A stretch of DNA of 64,000 bases from Psammoneis japonica (GCA_008632985.1 QPGO01000059.1:310001-374000), one strand, 5' to 3'. Shown: positions 19,551-56,124, counted from the stretch's first letter. Notes: generated by a model from the sequence alone, not told the origin. Made by a program: numbers and translations.

Positions 19551-22301
19551 CTTATCGAACTGTTTCTGTCACCGAGCACGGAGATTTGGAGTTGGGGCAG
19601 GGAATGCGTTCTGGCTCGTTGACGAATTTAAACTGAGCTGTTTCGTCTTAAACTCCCAGCGAAAGAATGAGCACCCACATCGAATGCATTGTTACGTTTT
19701 TCTAGCTTTTGTGAACTGGTCGTGAAATCCTTGGCCCATGATGTTCACCGCACTTAATGAAAGAAAAGACTCCAAACGCGTAGTGCCTCAGTAATGCCTT
19801 CTGATATATGTCATCGATAAGTCATGCGAGGAAAGGTTCTTTATGAAGGTCTTTCATGAATCTTGGATCATCGATGTCATACAGTAGGGCCCTAGCTAGA
19901 GGACTTTGTTAGCCTAGAGACATAATTGCAGTGACCCGCGGGATCGAAAAAATGACTCCAAACGCGCGAGACAGTTATGTAGTGAACTGAATCATCTCTG
20001 TTCGCTCTCCCTGTGCGTGATGCTGCCAGATAAAGTGGGGCCGTCGAGAGCACTTGTGCGTGAACGCCAAGCTACGACATTCACGAGAAATGCCTTTGAA
20101 GAAGGTCGGGACCGTTGGTTCATCGCAGTTGCATCACGAGGGATGTTTAGACTGGCGTGGTTGCACGGGCCATTTCAGCCACCACTCTTGCCCCGTGTTG
20201 ACAACACCTCTCCTCTGATGTGCGTGCATTGCCTGACATGCCAGACATTGTCCAAGCTGTGCAGGAAGGGTTCTTGTCCTTTGTCTTGCTTTGTTGTGGG
20301 ACACCCTCAACGCAAAAGTGCAAACTGTCAAAAAAAAAGAAGAAAAAGACATTGATCTGCTGAGCTTGGAAAATTGGGCTTGCAAAAGAGCAGAAAGTTG
20401 CAGCCACACAGGTGAAAGTGGAGACATGGCAGAGCATGCCACTTCATCAGTCAAAGATGTCATGCTCATGTGAGTGCTCAATGAAGGCTTGAAATGCACT
20501 TGGCCACAATTGCCCTGCTTTTGCTGAAAAACATGGGCTGAAGTGCTGTCTTGTGTCGCTGATCATTTTTGCAGACTGGCCATGCATTCTTTGGCCATTT
20601 TGAAAATTGTTTGCATCATGTTGTGCCAAAGAAAATGGGGTTGAGTGCCAATGTGCCAGTGCTGCTTGAGCTGGTCTTCACACTGCTGCTGCTGGCTTTG
20701 ATGAGGCAGTGCAGCCAGTGCACGTTTGTCATGTGAAGCCTGCTGATTGTGATGTTGCAAGAGAGCACACCTGCCCACCTGCAAGACAGGGCTCAGTCAA
20801 AACCACTGAGTGCACACACTGGCTTCATGAAGAAACACACTGTTCTGCAGTGCTGGCCACATTTGAGTGGAGCTGTCCCCATTTGAGCAGAGCAGAAGAT
20901 GGGCACATTTTGCTCCTGAGTTTCCTGTTGGGGTGGCAACAACCTCACGTGCAAGCAAGCAAGAGCCCTGCTGCCAGTGCAGGCCTTGACCTTGAGATGT
21001 GCGCAGGAAGCAAGCAAGTTTCCATGGCAGCCATGGACAGAAAGGGGGGAGCAAAATGTGGTGAAATCCCAACAGCATGCATCCCATGGAGGCTGCTGTG
21101 TCTGGGATGTCACATCAGGATGCAATGCTGTGACAACCAACAAAATCTCAAACAGCAAGGTCCTTGTCAAGGCCCAGAGGGCAGTCATGGAGGTAAAGAA
21201 AATTTGGAGGCTGTGGAAGTCATGGCAGCCATGGCAATGGCAGCAGATGCAATGGCGTCAATGGAGGTGGCCAAAGAGGCCACAGCAACAGCTGCAAAAT
21301 CACAACAAATCTCAAAGCAAAACCATCAAAAGGCAGCCAGCATTGCCATGTGGCAGCCAAAGCTAAAATTCTTGTGTTGGTGATGCCAGCTGCTCTTCTG
21401 ACACTTGAAGACAGAGCCAGGCTGCTGATGATGCAGACGAGTGACAGTGTGGCAGCCCAGGCTGGAATGGCTCCTCATGGCAAAACGCGCCACTTTGATT
21501 GGATCACAAACAGATGGTGTCCTTGACGCAGTTGATCACAAGAAACAGAGAGTGCCTTAAAGCCAGGTGCTGCCACCAGGAAATTTTTTTGTTTTGTGTT
21601 GAAAAAATTTGAGCTCTGGACAAATTGATGACAACACGTGATTTGATCATCCTGTTGCTTTGACCCATCCCTGAAGAGAAGTGCTCACACACATGAAAAC
21701 CAAGCTGTGGCATTTGTGAGTCATGCCTCTTTTTGAAGAATGTCAGGACCAGCATCTCAGCTGTTGCATTGTTGCAAGACTTGCTGAGAGTGGCATGATT
21801 GCAGCAACCCAAGGAAAGTTGTTGTTGGCATGATTTCTTAAAAAAGAAATGCAGCTCCAGCACTTGACAGTCACCCTTGCGTGCAAATTGTGCCAAGCAG
21901 GGGGGCACAGCAAAAGCCCATTTGCTGCTTTCATTTTTCTTTGGTGTTTTCATGGTTGTGCCATCCCTTCATGAACTTTCCCTTGATCCACAGCAGGCCA
22001 GACTTTTGATCATCTCCCAACATGTTCCAGCTGTGTGCAAGCCAGAGTGTGTGCTGAAAAATGACACACCCGCAGGATGTGAGCCAAATTTTCCCATGCT
22101 CAACAATGCTGGCATGCATGGCCACAAAACCTGCTGTGTTTTTTGTGCAGCACTTTGTGGTTGTTGTTGCAAAGCCAACAAAAAATCCTGCACAAACAGA
22201 AATGACAATTTTGACTCAAAAACATTGTGCCAAATGACACATTTCCTGACATCACTCTGTGCATGATGACCCCTTCTTTGTGTGAGCTAATTTGCCTGGT
22301 G

Positions 22302-22406
22302 GTGTGTCAGATGTGTCAATGAGGGGGTGAAGCAATGTGCTGCAGCAATGGCAGAGGTGGCAGTCCTGGAAGGATGTCATGCAAAAATCATGTGCACCAG
22401 TGTTGC
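22302..22406 (+). pseudogene. PHD-finger-like relic
   Basis: VCQMCQ*GGEAMCCSNG...SCKNHVHQCC; the TGA is compatible with CGA>TGA. Confidence 0.4.
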
Positions 22407-25400
22407 CATTTCTGTGTTGCTGGAGGAAGAAGTGTGACTGTGCACAATCTGATGCTCAAGACTGACAGACTGTTTGCACAATCAGATGTTCTGCAGGACA
22501 TCAGACTGCTGGTGCAGTTGGATGTTCTGCAGAGAGGGTGTCTTCAACAGGGTGCCAATGCTCTGCAAAGAGAACACCTCCAATGTCACACTCCAGCAGC
22601 CACCAGCCCACTGGTCTTGAACACACCAAATTTTTGTCATGTTTGATGACTCTGACATTGTCATCATTTGAGACAGATTTTGCAGCAGGTTGGTTGACCA
22701 AGTTGTCTGACATGTGTGCCTGAATGCAACAAACACCCAAAACAGCAAAAACTGTGAATGTTGGTCATGTGTTGAGCTGAAGAGCTGCAGTCAAAGTGGC
22801 AACTTGAAGCTTGCGTGGCACTCCTGCAAGGCTTGTTCAAAAATCAAAAAGCTGGGATTGCCGCAAAGCAAAAAATCAAATCTCAAGCAGACACCAGAAA
22901 TGTTGTCAAAGCACGGTGAGCTCAAAACTGGGTGCAATGTCCCTTCTCTGTGGGGTAGCACAGCATCTGAGATGTGCGCACTGACTTTCACTCACACACT
23001 CAAATTCTGCAAATTTTCTCTCACATTGTTGATGATTTTCAGTTGGTTGGGTCTCTGTGGAGAGTGCAAGCACATCACACAACAAAGATGACAACAGCGC
23101 CACTCAATGTGGACCATGCTTTGACTGTGTGTTCAAACACGGTGGTTGTTGCTTTGTTGTGGATGAGGCTTTTCAGACTTTGGAAGATGTTGAAGCCATG
23201 GAATCTGGTGCCAATGTTGCCACCACTAAAACAGCCAAGCGCACAGTGGCTTTCATCAATGCAAAGGTCACAAAAGCCTCAGAAAATTTCAACCAAAAGG
23301 ACTCAAGCCTCAGTTTGGTGCATTTGCAATGGGTGTCAAGCATGGGAAGGATTTGGTTGCTGCAGAGATTGCCCCTCTCTCATTGAAAAGAAAAGTGTTT
23401 GGGTGGAAGATGGCTGGAAGCTTGGCCACATTCAATCTGGAGGAATGTGGTGTGCACATGGGTGTGCTTGTAACTTGCCTTGCTGGTGCTGAAAGTGGGC
23501 ATGTTGAAGGCACCATTGCATTGTGGCTGCAATGAGCATGGCATGTGTCAGCTGCTGCTTGTTGGCTCAGCATTTGACAAGGACAATCACCAGGTCCGTC
23601 GCATGTTGAAAGAGTTCTTGGTTGATGCCTTTGGGTTGGTTTGGATTTCCCAATTGTTGTGGTGCTTTTTGATCTTGAGATTGTTGTCAAAATGTGACAA
23701 AGAAGGAGAGAGCTCATTGAGCACACTGCTTTGGCCAAGAGCATCATCAAAGTGGCTCATCGTGGAATGAAAAGGCACGTGTCCATTCAAAGCTCTCATG
23801 GAGCAGCTCACAAAGACGTCATCCAGACTTGAGGAACTTTGGCCAACAAATGGTCAAAGTGCTTTTTTGGGTGGTGCTCGGGCATCTGTGTTGTGTGGGT
23901 GGCACACAAAGAGCTGTTTCTCCAGCAAATGTTGCACAAGAGACTTTTTCAGAAGCTGGCACACACATTTCTCATCCCAAGTGCATCATTTTTTGCATGG
24001 AGAAGCTCAGCTTGAGGCTGCAGTTTGTCAAAATGGAAGATTTCTGAGACAGCAAATGGTTTGCCTGGACATGGTCATGGCAGATGGGGCAGTTTTTTCT
24101 GGAGGTGACTGAGATGGTCAAGGAGATGACAGCAGAAGTGGTTGAAGCCAGTGCACTGCTCAGAGAGGATTGTGGTGATGCCGGTCTTGAAAGCAGCAAG
24201 ATCATGGGATCAAGTGGTGGCTTTGCCATGGAGTTCAGTGTGATTGCCTCTGGATGTGATGTGCACTTTGACAGGGATCTCTGTGTGGCAGGCAGTGCTG
24301 AAAATGTGAGTGTGAGTGACTTTGTGATGATGGGTGGCACAGCTCATGTGATGAGCTGGAAGGCAGCATGTGGGGAGCAAGTGAAAGCAAGCCTTGAGTG
24401 AAAGGCAAGTCAGCAATGGTCATGTCAGCAATGGTCAGATCAGACAGGACAAAATCCTGGCACCAGATTGCTCAGCGGGCTCTGGAAAAAGTGAAAAAGT
24501 CTGTTCTCTTGGGCAACAATGTGGAGATGAATGACAAGTTGCCACAAATCATGTTCTTTCATTCCCTCTTGCCAATTCCCGCACTTCTCAGTGAAGTGAC
24601 AACAAACTGCTGTAAAAGTGGCGGGTTGCTTTGGAGTTGTCTTCACTTTTTTGATGTTTTCACATGTTTTGGTGGCGAAAAAAACTGCCATTGAAACAAC
24701 TCATTCCCATGGCTGCAGACTGTGAAGCACAGCAAGAGACTTCCAGCAGCGATGCAGGAAATGCCAGTGCTGCCACCACAGCAGCTGCACAACTGTTGTG
24801 CTGTGAATGCATCATTGTCATGAGCACTGACAAAATGGCTTGGCACTCCTTTTTGGGATTGACACAGTGCGGCAAAGTCTGGTCAAATCAAGTGCTGCAG
24901 TTCTTCAATCACACATTTGCTTGAGGGTGACAGTGCTTGGATCACTTGTTCCAACAAAGGAACATGACAACTGTCATGCATGTCACTTGGCATGAATGAT
25001 GGTCAAATTGCGGTGCAAGTGAAATGAGCACAAGTTGAAATCATGCATGGAATGTTTTCATGGCAAGAAGTTGCCTGGAGAAAGTGACGTGGCTTGAAAG
25101 CTCAAACTTGCTCACAAACTTGGCAAGAATTTTTGTGCCATTCTCTGGCATGTGCAGATCTGAGGTGTCTTTCTCTTGGCACGGGCCCACAGCAAATTGC
25201 CTGTGAGAACATTCTTTTTTGTTTGTGCACATGTTTTCAATTTTGGTGCCTTCAGCCTCCAGTTTTTTCCATCAGTCTCCAATGCAAGTGCATGAGTGTG
25301 GCTGCACCACAGCTTGCAAGTGCCAGAGCTGCTGGAGCCAGGGGCAGCTGATCACAATTTTTTTGTTTGGGGGGTTGCTCCCCAGATTGCTTGCTTTTTG

Positions 25401-26203
25401 AAGGCAAGCACATGTTCCCCAGCCATCTTCATTTGTCGCAGTTCCCCCCATCAAAGAGCAGCATGTCATGATGCATTGTCTCAAAGTTGTTCAAAGCAAG
25501 AATTCAAAATGTCCCAAAGTTGGTCAATGCAAGATGAAGACAATGCCCGCAGGTGGTTGGTCAGTTGGAGTGTCAACTTTTGTGGTGAAATTTGTTTCCA
25601 TGCGGATGATGTGCAGATGCAAGGAAGAACAGCCACTCCAATCCTTTTGAGCATGGATTTGGAAAAAGCTCAACAAGCTGATTCCAGATCTGATTGCTGA
25701 TGGTTTAGAGCTCCTGTCCATCACACTGTTGGGTTTCACACACTGTCCCACAACAAGCACACCATGTGCCACATGGTGCAGCCAAGCTGCATTGACACCA
25801 TGTGGGGTGAAAAAGAGCAAGGTGTTGTGATTGTGATTGTCACTTTGATGAGGAAGCAAAAAATGTTCCAAACAAGAAGAGACAACTGCCAAGACCCAAA
25901 TGGGAGACTGGGAGAGTTGCAGGCACCAACAGTTGTTTTGCAGTGCCTGACAACTGTGTTCACTGCTTGAGTTGGCTCATCTTCTCTCTTTGAAAAGAAG
26001 CACATTCCACCACTCCTTTTCTACATCACACATGGTGTGTTGTCCACGCTGGAAATCAAACGTCATTGTCTGCATCTGCCATGGGAAAATTGAAACTGGC
26101 AGAAGCAAAAACAATGTTGTTCATGTGTGTGCATGTTCCTTGGACATTAAAAATTGCATCTGCAGCAGAAATGAACCCAGTGATGGGGCCATTGTAGACT
26201 CAT

Positions 26204-26520
26204 TTACACAGCGGTTGTGAGAGCTGAGAGCCCTGCAGAAACATCAGCAAACACACTGCTTGTTTGCATGTCCAAATGCGGCATGATGGTCAATGGTGCC
26301 AAGAAATCCAGTGCAGCCATTGAAGCAAGCACTGTTTTAAGGTGGTGTGACTGCTCCATCATCTTGACAAACATTGCGGCCATCAATCTACAAACAATCA
26401 AGTCCCATGGTGGCAGATGCAGTGTTTCTTGTTGTTCTGAGTGTTGCATGAGATGCAACTTAAAAATCCCACATTGTGTGCTGCAACAACATGCAGCTTC
26501 ACATGTCAAACATGGGGTGA
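26204..26520 (-). pseudogene. MYND-finger-like relic
   Basis: PCLTCEAACCCSTQC matches CxxCxxxxYCSxxC with Y>C (TAT>TGT). Confidence 0.35.
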
Positions 26521-28210
26521 TGATGTTGTGTGAACCTCAAGTGACCAGGAGGTGACAGCTGTTCAACCCGCCCAAAGCAGCCCACAGGTTGGGTTTCTTA
26601 ATTTGCCAAAATCAGGTGATTTTGCTGAATCTAACCAGCCATTCACCCCCACACTTGACAAGGACCAGCCAAATGTGCTGAGCACATTTTGAAGATTTTG
26701 GGGATCATTTTGCTCCAAATGCACAAAAATGCACCAACATGTGGAAATGTTCAAGGACTCACAGCATCATGCCGAGATGTTGCGGCATGCTCGCGATGAG
26801 CCAGCAACTACAATGGAGTCAATTGGATGGCTGCAACAACCACAAAACTCACTGACGTGTGCATTTGCAGCTGTTGGCTGCTCAAGGAAGTGGCAGCACT
26901 TGCCATTCAATCATTCAAACATGAGAGTTCTTTTCATCTGAGAGGAGAGAGAGAGCACACGCTCCAAAGAGACACTTGACATTTGAGCCAGCACTGCCAA
27001 GTGTGCAGCAAGCTTTTTCTTCAAGTTCTTTGAGACTTCAAAAAGTTTGTCCACCTCCTCCAAAGCTTTTGCTCAGTGAGATGTCTGTTCCAGCCAGCAT
27101 CTGCTTCCATCTCCTGCACTGCCATCTGCTCCACAGCTTCTTTCAGTGCCATGGCAAGACCTCCTCATCCATCTTTTGCTGAAGCACTGCCCAAGTCTCT
27201 GATGGTCCATTGTTCTCAACCTCTGACTCTCATCAGAAGTTGATGAATCACTCCTCAACCCTTTTGCAAGTCTCCTCTTGCTTTTGCAACAGCTGTCAGT
27301 GCTGCACCTGCACCCCTTGGCTGAGCAGTGGTGGCTTCTTTTTTGCTGGCGGCCGGGGGGGGGGGGGGGGGGGGGTCATCATTGGATGGTGGATGGTGCA
27401 ACCATGCCTCCTCCCTGTGCCTCTTCTTTGTCCTTGGCATGCTTGGCCCCTCTTTGCTCAATGACAGCAACAGCAGCATGAGGCCATGGGCAGTGGGCAA
27501 TGGATTTGTCAATTGTTGTAATTTGTTGACATTGGTGAAGAGCACGAAGTGCACATGCAGTGCAGCACTCCCCTCACATGGGAGGGAGACTGTGACATCA
27601 TCGATTGGCATTGCTTCTGTGCAGTCCACACACAGCCAGTTTCAGCATGCAAAGCCTGCTTCTGACTGCACTGCTGCCACTGGCTGGTGCTGGCACCAGT
27701 GGGGCCCTGACAATTGATGACAGAATGAAGCAGTGGGCCAATCACACACCATCCACCAGACCTGCCACATGATGTGCTGCTGCATGTGACCAACCCCTGA
27801 TGGTTGACAAGCACACACAGCAGGTTCCTGGTTCCTCTCTCTCTGGAGAGTCCACTCTGCTGCACTGGCAGAGCTCTGGAGTCTGCTCTGCTCTCTCCAG
27901 AGAGAGACTCCACAGTGATGGAGAGTTGAGAGTGGTGCGCGACCCCGACGAAACAGCAACAACAGCAGCGCCAACCCAAGGACAGCAACAGCACCATGAA
28001 AATGACCACTGTGCCTGTCTGATGAACATGCTGTGAGGGTCGCTGCCACAGAGTCTGAGAAGACAGAGATCCTGACATGGGCTCCTTTTTTGTGCCAGGA
28101 TGGTTTGTGTTTTGGGAGTGCAATGCAAATGCTGCCAGCCGACCCACTTCACAGCTTTCCATTGAACAATCACTCCTGTTGTCAATGTTTGGAGAAAGCC
28201 CAGTGAAAAG

Positions 28211-29432
28211 GTGATGAAGTTGAATCCTTGCCAAGAGACATTTGCAGGCATGTTTGAAAATGCCGCTGAACTTGCCAACTGTTCCTCTACGAGAATGGAA
28301 AGTGACAAGGGCACTGCAGCGAAAACCGCAATCTGGCCCATTGACATTTCCGTCAAAAATCAAATTGGTCAACCACACACAAGGAAAGAACATCAAATGG
28401 CCCATCTGCTCCCTGTGGGTGTGTCAAAGAGCACAAAGAGTGGCTTGGAGTGGTGGCAGCTGTGCTTGGGCTTCCAGAGTGCACCAGCATCAAGAACAAC
28501 TCAAAGCAACTGGGGGACACCTGAAACCACCTCTGGAAGTGAGGCACAAATTGGGAAAGGAAGGGAGGGTGGCAAAAAACCAAAAGCTTGTGCAAAAGGT
28601 TCAAAATCAGGGGAATCAGAAGAAGAAACACCAAGTTGTCAGGACTGCACTGGTGTGGTGCACTTTGTCTCCAATGAGGTGTGACTGAGTGGTGAAGAAA
28701 CACACTGGGATGGGTCAACTGCTTCTGTCATTCTTGTTCCGTGCATGGACTTGGTGGAGGCAAAAGACTGGGAAGGGTCAAGCACACAAAGCTCTTGTTC
28801 TGGCTGGGCTCCCTTGTGGTCAAGCACCACCAGATGCATGCCAAGTGTCTGACCCCAAAGATGTGATTGGACTGGCAAAGGACGCTCACAGGCACACAGG
28901 TTTTGGTGCAGAGGGATTCTGCAAGTGTTGTGTTCAAATGAAAGAACAAGGTCTTTTGCCAGGAGGCCAAGAGCATGCTCACCTTCTGTGAAAAGCACAA
29001 AATCTCCTCAAGACTGCTGTGTTGGCCCTGGCCCAGTGCATTGAGAGCTTCGCGATGGCTGACCTCACAAGCCTGCTGAAGGATGGTCAAGAGCTGCTGC
29101 TGAGGAAACGTGGCTTGGATTTGGCTGAAGAGGTGCTGGCACCCATGGAGTTGTGTTCAAGCAGAGACCATCATCTCAGGTCACTGCTCTTTGTTGACTT
29201 CAGGCCCCAACTTGGTGGGGAAGCCAGCCACCAAGCCCCAAATCCCTTGTTGTTGGCAGCCAAAGCGGGAAATGTCTTTGGAAGGATGACAGACTTTGAG
29301 TTTCTTGCCAGTGCTGCACTGAACCATGCAATGAAGACAAAGAAGACAGTTTGGGCTGCCTGGGTGAAGAACAGTGGTTGGCCACATGCCCATCACAGCC
29401 AGCCCCGCCACTCCCTGGAGTCATTTCTGTGA
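28211..29432 (+). pseudogene. Relic of an HNH-like nuclease-type gene
   Basis: Fragments in shifting frames: IWPIDI..AHLLP, TGVVHFVSN, HWDG..VILVP, HQAPNPLLLAAKA. Family assignment is from recalled motifs only. Confidence 0.3.
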
Positions 29433-31588
29433 CCTGACATGGGGACCGCTTGTCAGCTTGCATTGATGCTGCAGGGCTGACTTCACACTCCCCGCCTGGC
29501 GAACTTGTTTCGTGCTGTGACCTTGTTTGGGAGGACTTGATCACTCCTTTCCCACACCCAACAGTCGCAGCTTGTCATCTGGACATTGTGCAGGGGTTTG
29601 TGGTTGACCTCGTCAATCAAAACTCAGATGAGTCACTTGAGGGGCAATGTCACTTTGAGAGCAGACAACAATGCAGACCACTCAGCTTCAGTGGAGTCAG
29701 CTCAGGAATTGCACTCACCAAATCCTCTGGATCCCCTTGACAAAGTGTCCACAGTGTTCAGCATTGATGTGCTTCCAACCTGATGCACTTGCAATTGGCT
29801 CCATTCAAACCTCCCAAGCTTTTTGTTCAACAAGTGAGTTGGGCAGATGTGACAGTGTCCCTTTTGCAAAAAGACTGTTTTGATTTGCAAATTGCACCAT
29901 GCCTTTGCAGAAGATGGGTGATGGCGTTTCTGCAAAGTGTTTGTCAGGCCGCCTGGTGTGCAAAATGTAAACATCTTTCATTCAAAATGGCAAAAGCACA
30001 TTGGGGTCATCTTTGTGCTGTTTTTTGCCATGATGAAAGCTCTTTTTGCCACACTGCTGAAGAAAACACAGCCTGAGCTCAGGTCATGCACCTGCAGCAG
30101 ATTGACATGTGCGCGCACTTTGTGCTTGCATGCGCAAATTGCTGATGCAGAGAGGGCAAGAAATGGAAACTCCACTGGGGCCATCCTTCTCTTGTTTGAA
30201 ACAAGACCAACAACAGAGGCAAGGCAACCCTGAAAGAGAGGGGCGCTGAGTCTCATTGCCTCCCACTGTGCTGCATCTCTCCCTCGCTGCTGTCAGGGCT
30301 GCTGCAGTGTCAACCAGTGTTTTTCCTGGCACTCCCAACCTGTCCACCATTGCCAATGACAACCCCTCACATTTTGTGACCAGGGGAGGGATTCCCACAG
30401 TGCAGAGGAAGTGCAAAACAAGGCTGCCAAGTGTGCTCAAGCTTTGACCCAGGTGCCCATGATGCACCAACATTGCTCCAATGTCTCACCCAACATCCTT
30501 TGTGGTCAATTGTCTGTTGGCTGTTGAAATTGTTCTTGGGCACAAGACTCCTCATCTCATTCAGAGCAATTGTTGTGGGGGCTGTTGTGTTGATCTTTTT
30601 GTCGAAAACTCGGGCGGGGGTTGGTGTGCGCATGCTGGAGGAGGCTTTTTGGCAACATTGCTGCCCCTTTTGATCTTTTGCAATGTGTTGAGCTGACCAT
30701 TTTTTGTCTCATCTGGTTGTTTGCTGCCTTGCATTGTTGGCAAGGCATCCTCTGCAACACACTGCTGCTCCGCCCCTTCTTTCTTTGTGCCCAGCTGCGT
30801 TGTCTGGCAACGGACATTGCAGATCAGGGGAGGGTGCCAGCAAGCCAACTCTGCAGATGACAGTCAGACTTGGGTTGCTGAGTGGATGCCTCTGAGATCT
30901 TCTTTTTGCTCTCTCTCTCACTGATGCTCATGTTGTCAAAAACGCCCGTTTGCAGGAAACTCTTGACGCCATTGCTGGTGTGGCTCCCTGCTCTGATGCA
31001 TGGTGCAGCGACATCAGGTCAAATTGAGTGTCACATTTCTTTGATCACTTGTCCGGGTGGCAGTGCTTGGATCCTTTGTCCCAAATGGGGGCATGCATGT
31101 GGCATCGGTCAGTGCTGCTTCCTGCGGTGTGTGTGGGGGGGGTGACATCATGCTGGCTGGGGGCGCGAAGTCGAAATCACAACATGCACCCGGTACGTCA
31201 TGGTTCAGTAACAAAAGTCGCATGTAGAAAATGTATGATGTGTTACGTATGGTGTTTGGTTGCCATCCATCATCGCCACAATCGCGCTGTCGCGTTCGTT
31301 CGTTGCAGTGAAGCTCTCAACGACCTGCTGTACTCTCGCCGCAAGAGCTTCATATTCATTGACGTTGCGTAAAGGTCGGTGTTTTATATGTTTTTGTCAT
31401 GGTGTCGATGGTTTGGTGTTTCATCTTTTCGAAAAGCAGTTTTTTTGCGGCGACTCGATGCCATCTTCTGTTCGCTGTGACGCCGTCGTATGACAGACAG
31501 GCCTTGATCGTTTTGTTGTTACAGTTAGTAGTCGGCTCACTTTTTTCTTGCCGTTCCGGTATTGTAGTAGACACGCTCTATTGCAACC

Positions 31589-31969
31589 ATGCCTTATTCG
31601 GATCCCAAGTACCCAGTGGTCAACCCTGATCCAGAGGTTGATGATTGCATTAAATCTATGAGGTTCCGCGATTATGCCGTGTTGGCTGGTATTACCTCTG
31701 GTTCTTGGGCGTACGGCTACGTGATGGGAAAGCCGGTTCGCATGCCGACCGCCTCGACAGCTGCCGCCTTGGGTTTTACCTTTGCCACCTTTGTGGTGAT
31801 TCAAGACACACGCGCACGTCTCATGGGCTACAAGGAAAACGCAAAGGAGGTTGCCAAGGCCGGAGGCGTTGCGACTCCACCCATTGCTCGGCCAACACAG
31901 AACGAGCGATTCCCGACCGCACTCAAGGAACCCACAATGAAACCACTGGATTGGAAAAATTATCAATAA
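31589..31969 (+). CDS. Mitochondrial complex I accessory subunit, NUXM/20.9-21 kDa family
   Basis: YPVVNPDP..DY..two TM helices..QDTRARLMGYKEN, matching the YPVxD..DY..Q.S..RLMG..N family pattern. Confidence 0.85.
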   Translation: MPYSDPKYPVVNPDPEVDDCIKSMRFRDYAVLAGITSGSWAYGYVMGKPVRMPTASTAAALGFTFATFVVIQDTRARLMGYKENAKEVAKAGGVATPPIARPTQNERFPTALKEPTMKPLDWKNYQ

Positions 31970-32077
31970 ACAAGGAAAGCAAGACTTTTGTTTTCAACAG
32001 TTACACAGCACGCAGTAAATAATAGTCGTTCAAATAACGTTCAGAATAATCATACTACTGGCGTCTCTTGCTTGTTT

Positions 32078-33209: not shown

Positions 33210-33377
33210 GGTCTTTATTAATACGTTGTGTTACGGACGAATAAAACAAAGATCACATTACAACAGCGCTGTTTTAGGTTGCTTTCACGTTGTTGTGTTG
33301 CAAAAAAAAGTACGAAGAAGAAGATCTTTCATGAGTCAGTCAGATGAGATTCCGAATTCCTTTTCCAAAGCAGTGAC

Positions 33378-43649: not shown

Positions 43650-46600
43650 AACGACCATGCCATGGATGAACACAACCCCAGTGGCATTTCTTGCCGACCG
43701 TCAACACAAATTGGAGCCAAGACGGCAGGCCAAGCACAATGAGAGGACATCTCTTGGGTGGCCGTGCTCTTGGAGTGTCGCCGCGCGACAGACAGCAGCC
43801 TGCGCAGGTGCAATGGATGGACAGATGACGGACGATGACGAGATGCCGCCCAGTCCCCCTCATTGTTCTTGGCAGACGATCAGTGACAATGGGATCAGAT
43901 GCGTTGACCCACTTGGGTCAACAATGCTGAAAATTCCCACCCAACCCATCCCTCTGTTCACACATCAGCGCAGGGGAACAAATGGACGGAATTAGATCTA
44001 CGGATTTGTCCCCTGTTTTCCCAGCCACTGTCACAGCAGCAACACATGAATGCACATGTTTGTGTGTGTGTCACACATTGGGTGCATTTGTCCATGGTTG
44101 TTGCTCCCATTTGGTGGTGTCACTGTGTTGTCATGTCATCGAAGTGCAGTCCAGCTGAGGCTGCAGTGGCAGGGAATCTCCGATTCATGACGACATCAGC
44201 CGCTGCGATCATCAAGATTCTGGAGAAGAGTCTCAACAATCTTGGAATTGCAGAGACCTCCAAGAAGATTTGGTGCCCCAAGCTCCCATTGGCACACATC
44301 AAACCTGTCATTTGTTGCAAGGTGTTCAATGGCATGGAGCTCATTTTTGCTGAACATGGCAAGTCATTGCACAAAATGACACTTCCCCTTCCCACCCATG
44401 ATGATGTTGTCACGTGGGCCCCATCAAAACGTCAAAATGAATTCAACAAAAACATCAAGTGGGCAGCATGCCCTGAGTTGGAATGACCCAATGTTGCACC
44501 TGTCATGCATGAATTTTGTGGCTGTTTCTGTGTGGTGTGGGATTGAGGAAAAGTGTCCGAGGGTTTTTGTGCCACATTGACACAGGTTCCATCCAGCCAG
44601 TGTGCTGCAAACCTCCCAATGCGGTCCGCATGTGAGTGGGCCATGATGAACCAACTGACAAGTCACCCAGACAACAACAGACTGACCAAGCCCAACTTGG
44701 ACAGCCCACGGGGTGCGCTTGTTGTGCTGGTGGCCAAACCCAATCAAGAGGACAACCCATGGTTCCAGCACATCTGGCACTCATGCATCTCATGTCAGAA
44801 ACTGAGCCAGGCAATGCATCCTTTTGCACGCATGCCCCCCTTGGTGCAACGATGCAGCACAAGACATTCCCCCACATGCCAAGTCTTTGTCAGCTTTGAT
44901 TTGGAGATTGTGGGTGCTGGCAAATTCATCATGACAAGGAAACCTGCTGCCACAAGACTGACTGTGGATTGCAACATGCTGGCACACTGCAACACATCTG
45001 CCAAAGCATGCATGAGGGGAGCAACTGAACACTGGAAGCTCCCCCACAACTGTGTTGATGGCCATCCCACAGCACCATGGCCCCCTCAATGAACAAACCT
45101 CCCCACTTTGGCACAACCCACACCACCCCTCACCTTCAGTGGTGCACTCACTTTAAACCATGCATCCAACCTTGCCCAAGAAGCCAATTGAGCCCAAAGA
45201 ATCATCGCACGGGGCCCCATCACACAGCCCTCATCCTCAAGCCTCTTGACAACATCAAAATCATTGCAAACAACCCTGTCTTTCTGGATGATCATGTGCA
45301 GAAAAATCAGCAGGACCATGCATTGGTGACCAATGCCAAGTTGTTCTTTGAAGATGGGTCACATCATTCACCCCAAGACAACCATGTTGATTGGCACATC
45401 ATGGTGTGCACACCAGAAAACCCAAAACCACCACTGTCTGACAAACAAGAAGAAGAGTTCCAGACATGGTGTTCGACAGCCCTGCTGGAACACACCAATC
45501 TTCTCATTGGGTGCGGTCATGCAAGAGCAGCCTTGTTGTTGTTTCCTCATTTTCATGGCAACCCAACCAAGTTCATCAAGCACAATGCCAAGCTGCGTGT
45601 CGATTGGTCAGCTGCAGCTGCCATGGTGAGCAACACCACTCATGGTGGTTCCATCAAGAGAGACCACATCCTGGTGCTTGTAGCCCCTGCAAGCATGGCC
45701 AAACAGCTCTGCTTTCCCCCCTCCTCAAAAACCCCAGATCCCATGCACAAGCATCTGGGCACACACTTGTCATCAAGCATCTTCCTTGATCTTGATGATG
45801 CAACCAAAACTGACCTGATGCCAGTTGCCAAAGCCATGGCAGAGAACATGACACATCAGCAACTGTCACCTGGTTTGCCAAGCCAAGTGCAATGAGCTCC
45901 CTCTGTGAGGGCTTTTCCAGCATTCTCTGACACCAACCCAGCTCCGTCGATTGCCGCACCCTGAGTCAAAGGAGATTTCTTCAATGGCCCATTTGCCACA
46001 TGGGGATGTCTTGCAACAACTGCCAGCATCACCACCCAGCCCATCTGTGTGAGATCATGAACCCGCTCGGTGTTGACCAGAGTCATGCCAAATGCTTGGT
46101 TCACCATGATGAGAGCACCCCACTCAAGTCATTGCACAAGCAGCACCAGGCAAAGCTGGATTGTGCATGATGCTCCATGCTTTGCACATGGCCGAATCCT
46201 TGTGCAAACCAGACAGTCAAAACATGAGGAGTTGGCCAACAAAGCCAACATCCAGCCAACTGCAGCACACATGTCTTTGGCCCCGGCAATCAACAGAGCA
46301 ACTGTGGTGCCATTTCCTGATGATGGCAAGTGGTGACAAGCAACGACACAAGATCATGACCACAAAGCAGTCCTGTCACACCTCCAACATGGCACAGCTC
46401 CCACTGGAGCCAACTTCAGCAACAAAGGTTGTGCTCGGGCATTCAAAGCTGACCAGTTAGAAGCAGATCAGGGCATCACATGCTTCTGTGAATGAATCAA
46501 GTTGAACAATCACTGCCAACTCTGAGCCAAAGTGGTGCCTGTCACATTGCGCTGAACGGTGATTGTGGCATGCCATGTGCCCCCATTTGCAGGACAAAGT

Positions 46601-48340
46601 GGCATCATCTGCATTTTGTTCCAGGTGCAAACAAGGTTCTGGTGGCTGGGCATGCTGCAAGACATCACAGAAGGCATCCATGGATGTGGACATTGCACTC
46701 TGGCCAACTGCACCTTGCATGAGGCTCAAATGCAGTTGACTGCATTGAGTGGTGATGTCCCATTTGATGTCATTTATCTTGATGTCTAGATGCCTGGTGA
46801 CATCCAAGATGTCCAAGGTCCAAAGAAAGTCCTCACATTTGTTGACTGCATGACTGGATTTGTCATGGCATCTTTCTTGGGAATTGCTTTTGACTCTTTG
46901 GTTGTTGCTGATGTCACAGTCTCACAGTTCTTTGTCTTTTGTGGACTGCCTGGACAGATTGCAGCAGGTGCTGGTTCAGTTTTCTGTGCTGTGTTTTTGT
47001 GGCTTTTTGATCTCCAAGTCCCCATCACAGCCATGTCCAGAACAAACCACAGAGCAGTGCACAATGAGAACTTCCACCATTGTCTGAATGAGGTTGAGAG
47101 CAGATTGATGCCGCAGACACCGGATCAATGATGCAATGGAAACTCAGCATCATCTTTGCTGCACATCCCTGGAGTGCTTCTCCCATTGATGCCACTGTCA
47201 TCCCATGAGCTGTTGCAGTGACAGGCAGAGAGTTCCCCTTCCCAATCAACCTGGTGCTGAACATGCCACATGACAGCAGCTCTGATGCCAAGAACAAATT
47301 GGCAGATCATTGCAAGGCTGCAACCCCACTGCCACTCAACAACATGAAATGCTCAACACACTGAACAATGAGAGGTGACAATGACACATGGAGCTGTGCA
47401 ACCACTCTGCTGCACAGTGCCAATTCTGCCCAGGGGATCTGGTCATCACAAGAAAAATGGTGCAATCTGATGCTTCATGTGGAATTGCAACCAAAGTGCT
47501 CTTCAAGGCCAAAGGTCCACATTGTGTGCTCAAGCAAATCTCTCCGGTGTCCTGTCGAGTGAAATGCATGCCGTTTCTCTGTGGACAAGGCCAGCCTGGC
47601 AAACCCTGGAAAGAGAATGCTGGGTGCATGACCCTGTCACCATCTCTGCTGATTTTTCACAAGCACGCAGACAGAGTGGACACACAGCTCCTTTGGCTGT
47701 TGAGTGACATCAAGCAATCACCACCACCGCACAAGTGGCTGGGAGTTTTGCAATGTGGTGGCTTCACCCAAGCTGCACCAGATGCCACTGGGGCATTTGA
47801 GCTGCTCCAAAGCATGTGGAGTGAAGACATGCCAGACCCTGACTCTGATTCCAACTCCAATTCAGACCCCAAAGATGACCCTCAATTGGCAGACAATCCC
47901 AGAGATGATGATGAAATCCAAGAAATCCCTGAGACTCCCCATGCTGAAACACCTTCCACCATGATCCTTCCAGGTGTTGATCTGTCTGCTGACCAACTCC
48001 TCAACAAACTCTGCTGGTCCATTGAGGATTCCACTGACAAGCCATTCTTCACAGCATGTCAACAATCAGAGGAGGACGAAAGTCCTGTGACAAAAATCAC
48101 TCAAGCGGACCTCCTGGAGACTGTCCCACATCAGGCAAAATGGCGTGGGATGCACCACATCAGATGGTGGTCTCAACACTTTCAAGACCAGGATGACAGA
48201 TCTGCAGTTGACAATTGACTCTGGCCAGATGCACACAGGAAATGAGCAGACAGCCATCAGCCACTCCAACTTGTTCCAGTGTGCCCGCAAAAGATTCAAG
48301 ATGTGCTGGCAACTGACTCCACTTTGGAGTGGAAGCACGA
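43650..48340. other. Block C: CpG/TpA-depleted DNA
   Basis: Visible dinucleotide bias; left edge 43651-43990 has 18 CG and 0 TA by hand count. Confidence 0.88.
44480..47900 (+). mobile_element. Degenerate Ty3/Gypsy LTR-retrotransposon pol (reverse transcriptase then integrase)
   Basis: RT remnants SPRGALVVLVAKP..WHSCISCQKL, SFDL..GCWQI. Integrase remnants PFDVIYLDV, VDCMTGF, GLPGQI, NENFHHCLN, GREFPFPI. Order RT>INT. Confidence 0.8.
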
Positions 48341-48478
48341 TTGTATTTACAAGATGATGTCCTTTTGGGAAGTGAAATCCAGTGTGGTCATTATCATGAT
48401 GATTGTCATTGTTGTCACCGTCAGCATCACTCATTCTGCAATCTATAATCTATAATGTTAACCTACACCACTGCGTCA

Positions 48479-49585: not shown

Positions 49586-50099
49586 GGTGCTGCGTCTGCG
49601 ACGCTTGTGTCGGTGTCTTCGACGAGATGCGGTGTGCAAGCGCCTCCTACGCCGATAACGGACAGACGGACAGACGGACAGACGGATGACGAACCGTCAA
49701 AAATTGGACGCTTCGCTGAACGGCTGTATCTCATTGTCTTCATTTACAAACATTTTAAGATGAAACATCAGATGCTTCAAACAACACAATGACGTTGCAA
49801 TTGTTAAAATGTCAAAGAGAAGGATGTCCGTGGTGCTCTTTTGCTTCTTCATTTTGACACTCATCAGCCGCCAGCAGCAAATCATGACTTCACGACATCT
49901 GTGCAAGTTTCATGAAATGTTTCCTCAGTGTCATCTTCATCACACGCCTCTTCAATCAACTTGACAGTGGCCCACAAATGGTTGGGTGCAACAGGTGGAG
50001 AGTGCACAATGTTGCACAATGCATCATCATCAGCAGCATGTTCTGTCTTGCACTTTTTTGTCTCTTTTTGTGCTTTGTCGCCCAACTCTTGATGAGCTG

Positions 50100-51150
50100 A
50101 CGAAGCTGAAGACATCATTTGGCGGTGTTTTCATTGTTCATTGTGATCAGATTGGTCCTGACAGGCCATCCACTCTCCTCTGGATTTTCGTCATTTTTGC
50201 AACTGACTCTCATGGAAACATGTCTGAAAGTTAAAAACCTTGATCTGCCAGCGATCTTTTCCTCATGGAAAGTGACATCCCAAGCAATGCAACCTGTGCT
50301 GTTGCCACCAATCTTGACAGGAATGTGGTCAACAACGGCATTTTCAAGAAGGTGCCAGAGGGAGCACACTCAAAATCTCTTGCACAGCCACTTCCAACCC
50401 ACACCATTGTTGTCCTCTGAGCAAGCAAGAGCCTCAAGTGGAAAAATCGAACACACCAGGTGCGAGCATGTGGATTTTCAAGATGAGCTGTCCAAGGACA
50501 TTTTGCTTGCAGTTTGTCCAGATGCTCATGTCAAACAAGCTGGGAATGAATCAAGGCATGTGGACCCACTTCTCCAAAGCTTTGCATGGCCACCCTGTGA
50601 TGACGAGCCTCAATGAGAACGTGGAGAAAAAGGAGGCCAACGGCACTGTTGGCTTTTTTGAGGGAGTTGAGCTGAAGGAATGTGTTTCTTTGGATGATTC
50701 AATGATTGATGAGAATTGATGGTCATTGGGTGAGGTCAGCCTGTGTTTCACAAGTTGAGTCAATTGTCTTGAGGCATGAAGAAAAGGCAGGAGGAGGGCT
50801 GTTTTGTGTGGCTCCAAGGAGAGAGACATGCTGTGTTGTCAACTTTCCTGTCCCTGTGATGGGCTTCATTGACAAGAGAACCCCAAGAATCAGTCAGAGG
50901 AAGCAATTGACCCAGTTCCCAGTTTTGTGCAACAACGCAGCAACTGCACACAAGCTCCAGGCAGGGGACAAAATTGAGAGCCTGGTTGTTGTCCAACAAA
51001 ACAACTTTGACCGCAGAGACAGCTGGGTTCATGTGGTTCTGTCTGGAGTGACAACAAGAAAGGGACTTTGTCTCAGGAAGAAGTTTGACAGCAGGAAAAC
51101 AAAGGGCATGCCATTTGCATCAAGTGAATTCCCTGGTCACTTCAGGAGCA
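50100..51150 (+). mobile_element. Degenerate PIF1-family helicase (Helitron-like) remnant
   Basis: FGG..IV, VDPLL..PVM..NENV...ANGT.G, QFPVL.N.AATAHKLQ, WVHVVLSGVTTRKGLCL (motif VI, YVxLSRV). Confidence 0.7.
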
Positions 51151-53089
51151 CAAGAGAGGGTTCTAAGAAGGCTGTCAGGCTCCTCTGGTGTGCTGCAAAT
51201 GACTGTGCAAGGCATTCACAACAAAAGATTGCAGTCATCAGACAATGACTTTTAATTGACAATTTGTCAACAATCTGGGCTTGCATCATGTGATTGTCCT
51301 TGTCAGGTGCAGAGACAATTGAGGGTGTTGAGTGAGTCACAATCTCCGGTTTGAAAGCGAGCGAGCGCGCAAAAAGCACAAAATCACCACATCCATCATC
51401 TCAACGGAAAAAAGGGCCATGTCACATCCACAGATTGAGGGTTTAAAAAAGACAAAAGCAACTGGCATTCAAATGTTCAACATGAATGACCTCAAAATGG
51501 AAAAATGGCTGGTTGATTGGCCAGGAGTCGACAGCATCCCAACCCAAAAATGACTGAGGCAACATAAAATTCGGAGTGTTTTGTGTGTCAGCAAACAAAT
51601 TGATTTTTGTGAAACCTCGAACCATGCAAAAGTCATTGCACCCCATTTCGTCTACAAAGACTGCTTGCAAATTTGGTCATTTTGAAAGTGGTCAGCTCCA
51701 AACCTGCCCCAACTTTGTCTCACCCGTCTGTCGCCGGTCCGTTTGGGGTCAGGGCAGGGGGGAGACACAGACGGGTGAGACGCGGAAAGAAATGAACCAA
51801 ATGAGCGTGCCACCGAAGCTGTTGGTGTCATGGTCAAGAAAGCCAAATGAGAGTGCCCCATGCTGAGATGACTGATGCAACAATGAGCACAGGCATTGAC
51901 AGTGCATGCCATCTCAGGATGAGTGTCATTGGCAACACACTGGAGCATTCCAGGGGCAGATCGACAACTGAAGCTGCAGTCAAAAGCAAGAGAACTTTCA
52001 TTCTTGAAGAGTGGAGAAGCAACAGGAGTGATGCTGTGCATCAAGTGACTTTGGATTTGGATGCAATGGAGCAACCAAGACATGGAAGTCATGATCAAGA
52101 CACCCGCAAGAAAAGAGGTGCAGAAAGTCATCACAGTCCAGCCACAGCTCGAATTGCAAGCTGTGAATGAGTCCATGCGGGAACACTCTGGGACCAGTGA
52201 GAACCAGAAAGGAAGCACAAATGAGCTGGTGGACAAACCAATCCACAGGAAAAATGCAACAATGAGCAAAGAGCAAAGCTCTCCACACAAAACACAGCCA
52301 GCAAAGGATCCCATGAACGTTGTTGGGCACATGACCTGTCACAAGAAAATGGAGCCATGCAAAGACAGGGTGCAGAGGTTTTGGAAGAAACTGTGTGACA
52401 TGTCACATCACCTCAAGAAGATCTTCTGCTTTTTCAGAAAACAAAAGTGTCAGAATGTCAATGACCGAAATCTTGATGATTTGTCTTCAATGCTTGACAA
52501 CTGCAGCCAAGAGGGGTCATCCCCACATTCATCCAAGAATTGCCATTGGCAGTTGAATCAGAACATTTGTGGTGCTCATTTTTGAACACTGAGTTGCCCA
52601 TGTTCACACCCCATTGTGCACAAAAATGAGAACATCAGGCACCGTGATCGAAGCACGATGATGATGGCAATCTCACAACAACTCTCCAAAATGCAGTGGT
52701 CCGTCCACAAACATTTGATGCACAGCAACCTTTGACACACTGCAAACACAAAATGAATGAGAGTTGGCAGATGGACCACCTCTGTCACAGACTTGTGGCT
52801 TGATGTTTTCACCACGGTGAAGCACGGTGAAATTCAGGAAAAATCATTCGAGTCGAGAGCCATTTGGCCAAAATCAAGATAAAAAAGCAGCAAATGATCC
52901 CCCTTGTGGAGCGGCGTGCTTTCAAAACAGCGGCACACCACACTGGTCTACATGTGCAATTGGGTGTGTGGGGACATGCCAGATTTGCTTCTTTGAATTT
53001 TCTTTCTGACTGTGGTTGCTGCTGTTTCTGCCATTTCATCAAACATGCTGATGCACCACAGCCTTTTGCATCAGACAATGGGGATCGAC

Positions 53090-55620
53090 AATGGGTCAAA
53101 GGCCCTTGGTTGTGTTGACCACCTTTCATTTTCTGAGTTTCGTGCAGTTCTGTCAGACAAGGCTGAAAAATCAGGTCAAAAAGGGCAGCCAACAGTTGCT
53201 GTTGACATTTCATGGTTGGCATTCAATCTCAGAGGCAACTGAGGTGTGGTCGACACCAAGGACCTTGTTGTTGCATGTTTGGAGAAGTTTTTGTTTGAGG
53301 GCGTCCATGTTAAAGCCAGATTTGATCCATCAGAGCACCACAACTCAAAAAAAGGCTGCCATGGATTGACGAGCAAAGTGCAACCACAGTGTTGTTCAGG
53401 CCATCAAATTCAAGACAGAGATTTCAAGATGTCTTGCAATTAGAAACATGCAACACCATTGATGAGAAAAATGAGCTTGTAAAAAAGAGAGATGCTCTGG
53501 ATGTCAAAATGAAGGCCTGTGAGCAAAATTGCAGAAATGCAACATCCTCAGAGTTCAAAGCTGTCATCAAGATGGGCGTTTGTGACTTGCAAGCTGTGCA
53601 CCTGAGTCTTTCCATTGTGGTCGGCCAGCACCAAGTTGATGGCAAAATTCAGCAGCTGTTGGTTGATGGATTTGCTGATGCTGCCATGGGAAATGATGCT
53701 GATTTCTCCTTTGTCGCAGGCAAAGCATGCATCCAAGTGTCAAAGTTCAAATTTGAAATGAAGAAGAAGAAGAAGAAGAATGAGAAGAAGGGGAATGCCA
53801 GTGACCCAGAGCAGACATCAGAGACATTGCCATCATGAGTGGATGTGTGTCCACTGTTCAATCTTGTTGCTCAGTTTTGGGAGTTGATGTTTCAGCTTCA
53901 AAAGAAAGTGGCCGTTCAACATGCAAGCCGGCTGCACATCCTTTGTTGGACAGGATTTCAGACACACGGTCACAGTGTTTGCTTGGCGTCACTCTTGGCA
54001 GTGATGCATTTCCTCAAAGTTTGAAGAAGACTGCTGCTCTTGAAGGCATGTCACATGCCACCAAAGGAAATCACCCGCGGCCAACAGCAACATTGACTTT
54101 GATGACCTTTTGTTGATGGTTTCTGAAATGACACCTGCAAAGAACAAGAACCCAAATGCAAAGAAGCAGCTTCTGAGTGCTGAAACTGTCATGGCTTTTG
54201 TGGAAGCTGTGGCACATGAGCCGGCGGAAGTTCTTGCCGACGGCAGCATTGTTCACATTGGCGGAGCTCCCGACTCTCCAGCTTTGGTGCACATCAAAGA
54301 TTTCTTTGCTCTTCAGACAACTTGAAGAAATTGGATTGTGCCATGATGGAATGCAGCGGCTCATGTGCAGATGGCAAGCATTGTTTTTTTTGGGGGGGGG
54401 GGGGTGGAGGAAGAAGGATTTTCCAACTGTCAGTCTTGTTGCAACTTGACGTGCTGCCGAATCTGCGTGCCAGAAGGTGACACGCCATGTGCTCAATGTT
54501 CGGTTGATGGAACTGCTTGTCATCCTGACAGCAATGAATTTGCAAAGCTGTTGCAAGTGGAGCTAAGAAGTGCACTGGCAGAGAAGATTGAGATGCCAGC
54601 CGGTGCATTGATTCCAGAATTGCTGGAGCTTTGTGAGATGTGTCACTTGCATGACACAGCTGAAGGCCCAGAAGACCTTCTGGGAGAAGCAATGTTTCCC
54701 ACTCACCATCTAGAAGCAATGGAGACTTTGCCAGCAACAGCCAACACACAGACTTCCAAGATGGGGGGCACTTCATTGGAAATGAAAGGCTCACAAACGG
54801 TGTTTCACCAATGCAAGCTCACTTCATTGTTTGCATCTCTTGTGACTTTTGGAGAAAAAGATTTCAACTTTCCAAAGGTGGCAGAGGTTTTGCCGAATGC
54901 AATCATCGCTTTTGCACGGGGCTCATGCATCAACAGTGGGGAAAGGCTTGTGAAGCAGTGTGCGAGACACGCTTTGGATTCCAAGTGCCCGCCCTTGACT
55001 CATGCTGTTGGAGCTGTGTTTGAATTGGGTGATGAGGTGGGTGCTCGGATTGATGCCAAAGTGCCCCCGTCTTTCAAAGACGGGGTGCATGACATGCGTT
55101 TGGCATTTGCAGCAACGAATCTTGTGGCAACAAAATGTGGTTGCAAGGCAGGTCACAACAACAGCTCCAATGCGAGTGAATCGACAAACGCCCATGCTTG
55201 CTCGTTGTGCCATGATGGAGGGAATGTTGCAAAAGGTTCGCGAGGTCCCACCCAGAGCTGGAGCGCATCAGGCGGCACACTCTTCTTGCAGCTCAGCAGT
55301 TGACTTGGAGGTTGGGATGTTTGGCTGGGAGGTGCATCCAACACAGATTACTTTGAATGCAGCCAACTGCTGCAAACACAAGAGGAGTTTCAAAAGAAGG
55401 ACAGCTCGTCGACGCTGAAGTTTGCAAATGTGCTCGACAAAGGCTTTCGGAGCGTTCTTGCAGCAGCATGGCAATTTGGAGGACAGCTGTTGTTGCAACC
55501 TTTCTTTGCCAGGAGTGACCGCAAGTTCACAAGCAAAGAGGTGCTTTTGTCTGCAGCCATTGCTGCTGATCGCTCGGGGAATGAGCGCTCAGCAAATCTG
55601 CTCAAGAAAGTGGCATGATT
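53090..55620 (+). pseudogene. Degenerate XPG/FEN1-like nuclease followed by Cys-rich and SWIM-like zinc fingers
   Basis: VAVDISWL, ARFDP..HHNSK (XPG-N); VGQHQVDG..GFADAAMGNDADF (XPG-I); LGVTLGSD (H3TH-like); KVPPSFK..H.M..ATKCGCKAG (SWIM-like). Confidence 0.6.
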
Positions 55621-56124
55621 GCTCAGGGCGCACATTCACTCCACACAAGACCTTGCCGTTTTCTCAGACGTGTGGATTGCTTGGGGATTTCAGTGTAATT
55701 TCATGTTTATGCCTGTAGTTTAGAATGTAGTTTCAGATGATGCCGGAAATGGATTATGGGTGTTGCCATTCGATCAATGAGATGCATGACATGCGATGCT
55801 GTACATGCATGCCATGTCTGTCGTTGCGAATCGTCTGTCCTTTGACCGATGTGCGCACCGCACTTTTGGAAACAACTTACAACAATGACCGTTTTCCGAT
55901 TGGAGACATCGCAAGACACTTCCAAGAAAATCGAAGGCAGTTCCAGAACACAAAATCCATCACAAACTCAACAAACCGCAGTTTTTGTTCGATGATTCGT
56001 GCCCATCACCCGTCACATTGTTTGTGCATCTTCTTTGTTCGTAGTTGGACGACTGCATTTTTTGTCACCTCCCTCTTGTTTAACCATAGGTCCAGATTGT
56101 ATCTTTCATTAAGTCTCACAAAAG

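Follow-up and report, generated by a model that had tools for sequence, protein, structure and literature searches.

We report that a stretch of 64,000 nucleotides from the diatom Psammoneis japonica (GCA_008632985.1, QPGO01000059.1:310001-374000), called here the window and numbered from its first letter, contains four blocks from which the dinucleotide TpA has been erased almost completely and CpG to a large extent. One block carries the relic of a retrotransposon, and its conserved tyrosine and arginine codons were altered by transitions at TpA and CpG on both DNA strands. We consider it probable that the blocks are old, dead inserts changed in situ by a CpG and a TpA transition process, the latter most likely through TadA/ADAT2-like chemistry.

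TpA and CpG are depleted in four sharply bounded blocks

Dinucleotides were counted in 1-kb bins across the window. Outside the blocks each kilobase holds ~30-55 TA and ~45-70 CG; inside them there are 0-10 TA and 5-22 CG, with TG and CA at ~100-140 each. We set the limits at 20148-31194 (block 1, 11.0 kb), 35900-38431 (block 2, 2.5 kb), 43647-48344 (block 3) and 49805-55696 (block 4, 5.9 kb), and the borders are abrupt (at most 200 bp) for TA and CG alike. An earlier, sequence-only reading of the window had claimed four such blocks; our limits lie within ~130 bp of those it gave, and the example it chose, 20701-21300, has exactly the 4 CG and 1 TA that it counted, along with 69 TG and 77 CA.

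Pooled, the blocks span 24,169 nt and the flanks 39,831 nt. TA occurs 55 times in the blocks (observed/expected ratio, rho, of 0.03) versus 1600 times in the flanks (rho 0.58), and CG 328 times (rho 0.23) versus 2280 (rho 1.02), whereas TG stands at 2741 (rho 1.83) versus 3036 (rho 1.20) and CA at 2722 (rho 1.79) versus 2859 (rho 1.17). The binomial probability of the block CG count under the flank rate is 1e-265, and that for TA underflows. The depletion is confirmed as real and extreme in all four blocks: from block 1 to block 4, TA rho is 0.033, 0.048, 0.028 and 0.037 (24, 8, 8 and 15 occurrences) and CG rho is 0.166, 0.293, 0.209 and 0.347 (109, 44, 62 and 113 occurrences). In every block the depletion of TA is more uniform and fuller than that of CG. 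The longest stretch without any TA measures 1680 bp, and within 37762-38431 TA is 0, yet about half of the CG is still present.

The summed pyrimidine-purine steps are equally frequent in blocks and flanks (0.2419 versus 0.2454), and the rise in TG+CA (+0.078) matches the fall in CG+TA (-0.082). Since the total is constant and the gain equals the loss, TA and CG were lost through transitions. GC content is nearly flat (0.488 in the blocks versus 0.474 in the flanks), which, with the fall of TpA, bears out the view of the sequence-only reading that the change runs opposite to fungal repeat-induced point mutation (RIP).

Loss of TpA depends on the neighboring bases

AA is undepleted (rho 1.20 in the blocks versus 1.16 in the flanks), and so are GA and CA. 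A context-free A>G process that removed 97% of TA is excluded, because no adenines would remain. Biased gene conversion toward GC and context-independent A>G change were considered and are ruled out by this context specificity and by the flat GC content.

The base that follows TA also matters. Relative to flank density, TA survival is 0.6% for TAT, 3.6% for TAC, 6.9% for TAG and 11.9% for TAA (n=50 surviving TA, both strands counted); loss is fuller before a pyrimidine (TAY) than before a purine (TAR; Fisher P = 1e-11), a result that holds without the TA-richer patch at 26000-26850. Residual CG is enriched where it is flanked by G or C. Across the blocks the ratio of TpA to CpG log-survival is 1.6-2.6, which implies that, if both began together, per-site TpA change outpaced CpG decay in the same DNA by a factor of at least 1.6-2.6, the ratio being only a lower bound because the leftover TA may be at equilibrium.

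A retrotransposon relic records the direction of change

Homology identifies block 3 as a truncated relic of a Ty3/gypsy-type retrotransposon on the plus strand. An Integrase_H2C2 zinc domain is matched directly at ~46535-46708 (E 7e-9), and a phmmer search of 1.84 billion representatives, using the frame 46301-47800 with X in place of stops, returned 1189 matches, the best with E 4.6e-65 and 44-48% identity over ~260 residues. Its homologues include a 1862-aa Pol protein (P0123) with RVT_1 at residues 160-326, RNase H at 403-556 and Integrase_H2C2, and another (P0128) with RVT_1, RT_RNaseH, Integrase_H2C2 and rve.

Aligned to P0123 by tblastn, the plus strand at 44295-44906 corresponds to residues 4-205, the start of the reverse transcriptase; 45275-47098 to residues 706-1328; 47098-47331 to residues 1328-1404; and 47310-48347 to residues 1398-1771. 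The integrase falls in the segment 45275-48347 (Pol residues 706-1771), and Pol residues ~205-706 are missing through an internal deletion of ~500 codons. Pol homology stops at 48347, just 3 bp past the edge in composition at 48344, and because it ends inside Pol at the block edge, the 3' end of the element has been lost. No direct repeats that could represent flanking long terminal repeats were found by repeat search, blastn or blastn on recoded sequence. In block 3, the Pol region keeps a codon-like period-3 signal in purine/pyrimidine space, a recoding that is blind to transitions.

We determined the direction of change by tblastn of up to 150 homologues onto this relic. At the looser cut (at least 5 homologues agreeing at 50% or more; 297 columns), none of the 10 consensus Tyr was kept: 4 became Cys, 3 His, 2 Phe and 1 Leu, such that the TAY of Tyr turned into TGY or CAY at 7/10 conserved columns. 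Consensus Arg was kept at 8/25 columns, the changes including 5 stops, 4 Cys, 3 Gln and 1 His, and the in-frame TGA stops of the relic sit at Arg columns. Other residues fared differently, with Phe kept at 18/20, Trp at 9/11, His at 10/11 and Pro at 28/30. Over the same columns Tyr makes up 0.1% of the relic versus 2.8% of the homologues. As Tyr and Arg were lost while Phe, Trp, His and Pro were 82-93% kept, TA and CG were lost by mutation after a functional stage. The sequence-only reading had described Y>C, Y>H and R>H/Q substitutions in relic motifs, and in block 3 Y>C, Y>H and R>C, Q, H or stop are found at columns fixed by homologues.

At the stricter cut (at least 8 homologues agreeing at 60% or more), 56/193 columns changed, and CG or TA transitions explain 26/56. 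The single steps on the coding strand comprise 5 TA>TG, 5 TA>CA, 8 CG>TG and 9 CG>CA (one column taking two steps). Judged by these columns, the TA- and CG-free state is derived, arose on both DNA strands and destroyed a once-functional element. Composition and relic columns together support a strand-symmetric A>G/T>C process specific to TpA, acting in the same domains as the CG loss, as the sequence-only reading had claimed.

A similar test on four intact homologues found Tyr kept at 2/2, 6/7, 5/6 and 4/4 columns, with Arg kept too, and at three metagenome loci that encode relatives TA rho is 0.56-0.64 and CG rho 0.97-1.12. Intact copies already free of TA would have spoken against a mutational origin; the relatives from elsewhere have normal TA and CG. 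Among other homologues, P0175 shows Tyr>His at 2/2 columns, and P0124, P0125 and P0145 show decayed Arg with Tyr kept, in each case with counts too low for use. Four short relic homologues (P0161, P0202, P0230 and P0175) contain 0-2 Tyr and 7-13% Cys+His, and hypermutated relic ORFs (open reading frames) resembling that of block 3 may stand as "proteins" in public gene sets.

Contigs from a second dataset repeat blocks 1 and 2

We compared 19000-38900, which covers blocks 1 and 2, with Logan contigs of a public run, X1, using 31-letter words (depth ~50-68); 91% of the words sampled from 22000-30000 are present in X1. The X1 contigs differ from the window by 13 other letters and 15 gaps over 19000-25872, and by 17 other letters and 2 gaps over 27386-30724. 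They confirm block 1 and bridge the edges at 20148, 31194, 35900 and 38431, that is, both edges of each block. Window and X1 are separate assemblies, because scattered substitutions and small indels lie between them, and the TA- and CG-free state is common to both.

We examined the best-supported 40 of 96 differences between window and X1, 34 of which lie in block 1. Exchange of CG with TG or CA is the commonest type among them, accounting for 15/34 in block 1 (11 with CG in X1 and 4 with CG in the window). CpG decay is thus still seen as polymorphism. At 2/34 block 1 differences the window has TG and X1 has TA.

Block 1 is mostly at single-copy word depth in X1. The sub-region 26022-26809, which holds 10 of the block's 24 TA, has a word depth of 160-269 versus ~63 nearby, and contigs skip 107-309 bp of it; it may be a younger, multi-copy and partly mutated insert.

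Blocks 1, 2 and 4

All four blocks are discrete and sharp-edged, and a mobile origin is demonstrated for block 3 only. Six-frame Pfam searches with stops read as X gave no match in block 1 or block 4, and the 95 ORFs of at least 75 aa in blocks 2-4 yielded zf-MYND and Integrase_H2C2 alone. A word-based homologue search found no homologue of the 304-aa ORF of block 1, and two scans of viral contigs with block ORFs found no relative. Against PDB sequences, the two longest ORFs gave non-significant E values of 0.089 (a CroV protein) and 0.44; neither PDB nor the viral contigs gave a significant match to the 318-aa ORF of block 4 (54347-55300). In purine/pyrimidine space, block 1 carries a weak period-3 signal, hardly any, and block 4 a modest one at 54000-54800.

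Within the window, neither repeat search nor blastn detected DNA similarity between blocks, and blastn on the purine/pyrimidine recoding gave marginal inter-block top scores of 97-108 versus 81 for a shuffle. The only clear repeat in any block is a 74-bp tandem repeat in block 2 (36589-36737; two copies, 94-95% identity). The sequence-only reading had called the process repeat-targeted; this is unproven, given that the blocks share no similarity and block 1 is mostly at single-copy depth in X1.

Lying mostly in block 2, an open 265-aa ORF on the minus strand (37761-38558) encodes a MYND zinc finger (zf-MYND, E 8e-7) and contains 1 Tyr, 15 Cys and 13 His. It may be a host gene struck by spill-over, or it may belong to the element.

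Having lost TAA and TAG, the blocks retain TGA as nearly their sole stop on both strands. Open frames of 270-318 aa occur at 27509-28423, 54347-55300, 45059-45892 and 47385-48215, and gene callers could take such frames for orphan genes.

Discussion

In the account we favor, mobile or foreign DNA would have integrated into the diatom chromosome, and after integration two context-specific transition processes would have struck both strands, confined to these domains. One would convert CpG to TpG/CpA, and its simplest source would be 5-methylcytosine deaminating in silent DNA that is methylated at CG. The other, faster and more complete, would convert TpA to TpG/CpA, changing A to G on either strand only after T; its likeliest chemistry would be enzymatic deamination, with a TadA/ADAT2-like enzyme drawn to silenced chromatin turning adenine in the DNA into inosine. 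For blocks 1, 2 and 4 we infer the origin as old, dead insertions that homology reveals in block 3; action in situ in every block, a connection with silencing and methylation, and the nature of the enzyme are likewise the conjectural parts of this account.

The closest known parallel comes from the chlorarachniophyte Bigelowiella natans. In mutation-accumulation lines of this alga, two integrated viral regions accounted for 231/302 new substitutions in the nuclear genome, and 230/231 of these were A>G or T>C, every one at TpA (bioRxiv 10.64898/2026.01.13.699255). The rate was ~6e-7 per site per generation, ~1000x background, in some lines only, and the genome holds 124 TpA-poor, CpA+TpG-rich clusters and 324 TpA-poor gene models enriched in reverse transcriptase and DDE domains (bioRxiv 10.64898/2026.01.13.699255). 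Mettrop et al. 2026 propose an ADAT2 homologue as the editor and cite work in which amphioxus ADAT2 edits DNA and trypanosome ADAT2 deaminates C in DNA (bioRxiv 10.64898/2026.01.13.699255). The sequence-only reading knew of no described mechanism for TpA loss, a statement now outdated, since the same TpA>TpG/CpA signature arises de novo in B. natans. Our literature search found no report of TpA-directed hypermutation besides this preprint, and none for diatoms.

The two cases share A>G/T>C change at TpA that yields TpG/CpA on both strands, observed as de novo mutation in B. natans and read from the footprint here. Both are restricted to discrete regions, which in B. natans are inserted DNA of nucleocytoplasmic large DNA viruses (NCLDV) or virophages and here have a demonstrated mobile origin in block 3; and both leave TpA-poor, CpA+TpG-rich clusters as a long-term footprint. 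They differ in that our host is a diatom, a stramenopile, and the only target identified is a retrotransposon relic. The footprint is also saturated here (rho 0.03), unlike that of the NCLDV region of B. natans (rho 0.45), and shows a preference for TAY over TAR. CG is erased in the same domains here, whereas the term "CpG" is absent from the preprint text. By analogy, the match between our two-process footprint and TpA hypermutation in B. natans suggests that diatoms may have it too.

Other known systems account for parts of the pattern. Diatom transposons are CG-methylated, with DNMT5 as the methyltransferase (PMC9998398), and the CG loss is what 5-methylcytosine deamination in CG-methylated transposons would give: CG>TG/CA on both strands in transposon DNA, with Arg CGN becoming TGN or CAN. 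Methylated-CpG decay differs in that it cannot remove TA. Fungal RIP resembles our case in its heavy, domain-restricted transitions that kill mobile DNA, but it depends on duplicated sequence and changes C to T mainly at CpA, making TpA and AT-rich DNA; in our case TpA is erased (rho 0.03), GC is unchanged and no duplication is detectable among the blocks. For TadA and ADAT2-ADAT3, the natural substrate A34 follows an invariant U33, a "TA" context; the order of loss TAT>TAC>TAG>TAA is not known for these enzymes or for adenine base editors. ADAR hyperediting of animal retroelement RNA shares A>G change with a preferred 5' U, but it acts on RNA, appears one-stranded once in DNA and is partial, unlike the ~97% removal on both strands seen here.

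Among alternative explanations, the loss of TA could be a by-product of CpG methylation, with T:G mismatches drawing error-prone patch repair by a Pol eta-like polymerase that makes A>G errors nearby, a candidate put forward by the sequence-only reading. A separate process dedicated to TpA would then be superfluous. The common domains and edges of TA and CG loss speak for it. Pol eta errs with a bias at WA (W, A or T), yet AA is intact; TA loss exceeds CG loss in all blocks by the log-survival ratio given above; and at 37762-38431 no TA is left where about half of the CG persists. The TpA changes of B. natans, moreover, came almost without C>T (bioRxiv 10.64898/2026.01.13.699255). The candidate fits poorly and we regard it as unlikely. 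Still less probable, in our judgment, is editing before integration, whereby retroelement RNA or cDNA would be hyperedited by ADAR-like A-to-I conversion or a cDNA deaminase. Block 3 is indeed a retroelement, and ADAR-type enzymes prefer U 5' of the edited A (bioRxiv 10.64898/2026.01.13.699255). Editing of a single strand would be asymmetric, whereas TG about equals CA in every block and the coding strand of the relic carries 5 TA>TG beside 5 TA>CA, with 4 Tyr>Cys and 3 Tyr>His; the CG loss, besides, has identical borders. To our knowledge, 97% removal also lies far above known hyperediting, and we know of no ADARs outside animals, which counts further against this route.

The blocks might instead have inherited their composition from a donor naturally poor in TA and CG, or have had both dinucleotides selected out, just as some cytoplasmic RNAs and RNA viruses are short of CpG as well as UpA (PMC3829696). 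The relic has lost conserved Tyr and Arg codons and gained stops, so the state is derived and non-functional, and relatives carry normal TA and CG. A rho of 0.03 is, as far as we know, far outside known selected biases, and we give this explanation very little credence. A sequencing or assembly artefact, in which modified bases (5-methylcytosine, modified A or T) were misread as T or G, is equally hard to credit. Systematic miscalls at methylated CG and hypothetical modified TA would yield such a pattern, and the small indels relative to X1 are such as a long-read assembly might have. Against this, the X1 contigs, built separately and needing accurate reads, agree across blocks 1-2 and four borders; miscalling would have to reach ~97% at TA on both strands; and the in-frame stops and Tyr/Arg replacements fit a truly dead element. 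The sequence-only reading had named a base-calling artefact among the things that would undo its proposal, and this is made unlikely by the repetition of block 1-2 sequence and borders in X1. The reading left standing is a domain-restricted, TpA-specific conversion, in DNA, of A into a base that pairs as G, for which enzymatic adenine deamination would be the simplest chemistry.

Several observations weigh against the account of dead inserts altered by a CpG and a TpA process. The direction test comes from one relic with just 10 Tyr columns, and 30/56 changed conserved columns are unexplained by CG or TA transitions, so the relic is also ordinarily old and "hyper" rates are not derivable from it. 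Blocks 1, 2 and 4 have no mobile or viral origin recognizable by Pfam, homologue, PDB or viral-contig searches. The two differences with TG in the window and TA in X1 hint at possible recent TpA activity and are too few to count. Read-level confirmation is confined to blocks 1-2, and X1, which has no recorded library type, cannot be asserted to be Illumina. Finally, a diatom mutation-accumulation study found CG, CC and TG contexts mutagenic and, in the part of the paper available, reports no TpA hotspot (PMC6604790), which would not be contradictory if the targets are already exhausted.

TpA hypermutation of inserted DNA has had a single report so far, the preprint of 2026, which concerns an alga for which genetic tools are scarce (bioRxiv 10.64898/2026.01.13.699255). 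A saturated diatom footprint would mean that the process is not peculiar to one lineage and would tie it to transposon silencing and CpG methylation. Diatoms include transformable model species, in which deaminase, DNMT5 and chromatin mutants are feasible. There are consequences for annotation as well: such relics lose all Tyr codons and the TAA and TAG stops, giving long spurious ORFs, and they evade domain-based transposon annotation (Pfam recognizes 1 domain in 24 kb) and are mistakable for orphan genes. More speculatively, and with considerable doubt on our part, diatoms might possess a chromatin-directed defense that edits or marks the TpA adenine beside CpG methylation in the same silent domains and runs to completion. 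With one signature common to a rhizarian (B. natans) and a stramenopile, this would be an old counterpart of RIP across the SAR group (Stramenopiles, Alveolata and Rhizaria). If so, silenced insertions would have both self-complementary pyrimidine-purine steps overwritten for good with GC content unchanged, by one targeting machinery with a measurable flank preference, TAY over TAR.

Other features of the window

The flanks carry ordinary eukaryotic genes, including IBR, MYND, GINS Psf2, CrcB, a peroxidase and a CDF transporter. For this transporter, every named best match comes from a diatom (Attheya, Odontella, Fragilaria, Cyclotella, Nitzschia and others; 50-59% identity), so the window is diatom DNA, as the sequence-only reading took it to be, rather than DNA of Bigelowiella. 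The sole Rfam match in the window is a U4 spliceosomal small nuclear RNA gene on the plus strand at 7911-8041 (53.5 bits).

Between blocks 2 and 3, the minus strand at 41784-43385 encodes an intronless 533-aa long-chain acyl-CoA ligase whose best matches reach 58-65% identity, the named ones all being proteins of Myxococcota or of deltaproteobacterial metagenome-assembled genomes. Judging by these matches, this nuclear gene of the diatom seems to have come from bacteria.

In AT-rich intergenic DNA just outside block 2 (38256-38900), the summed X1 depth jumps to ~110,000 with many loose ends, which may reflect a short repeat in very high copy number or matching DNA of other organisms in the run. 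Repeats at 15543-17159 and 18341-18832 include a ~0.8 kb tandem duplication with 86% identity (15625-16218 versus 16416-17012), and a 651-aa ORF at 17595-19550 contains ~135-bp internal repeats.

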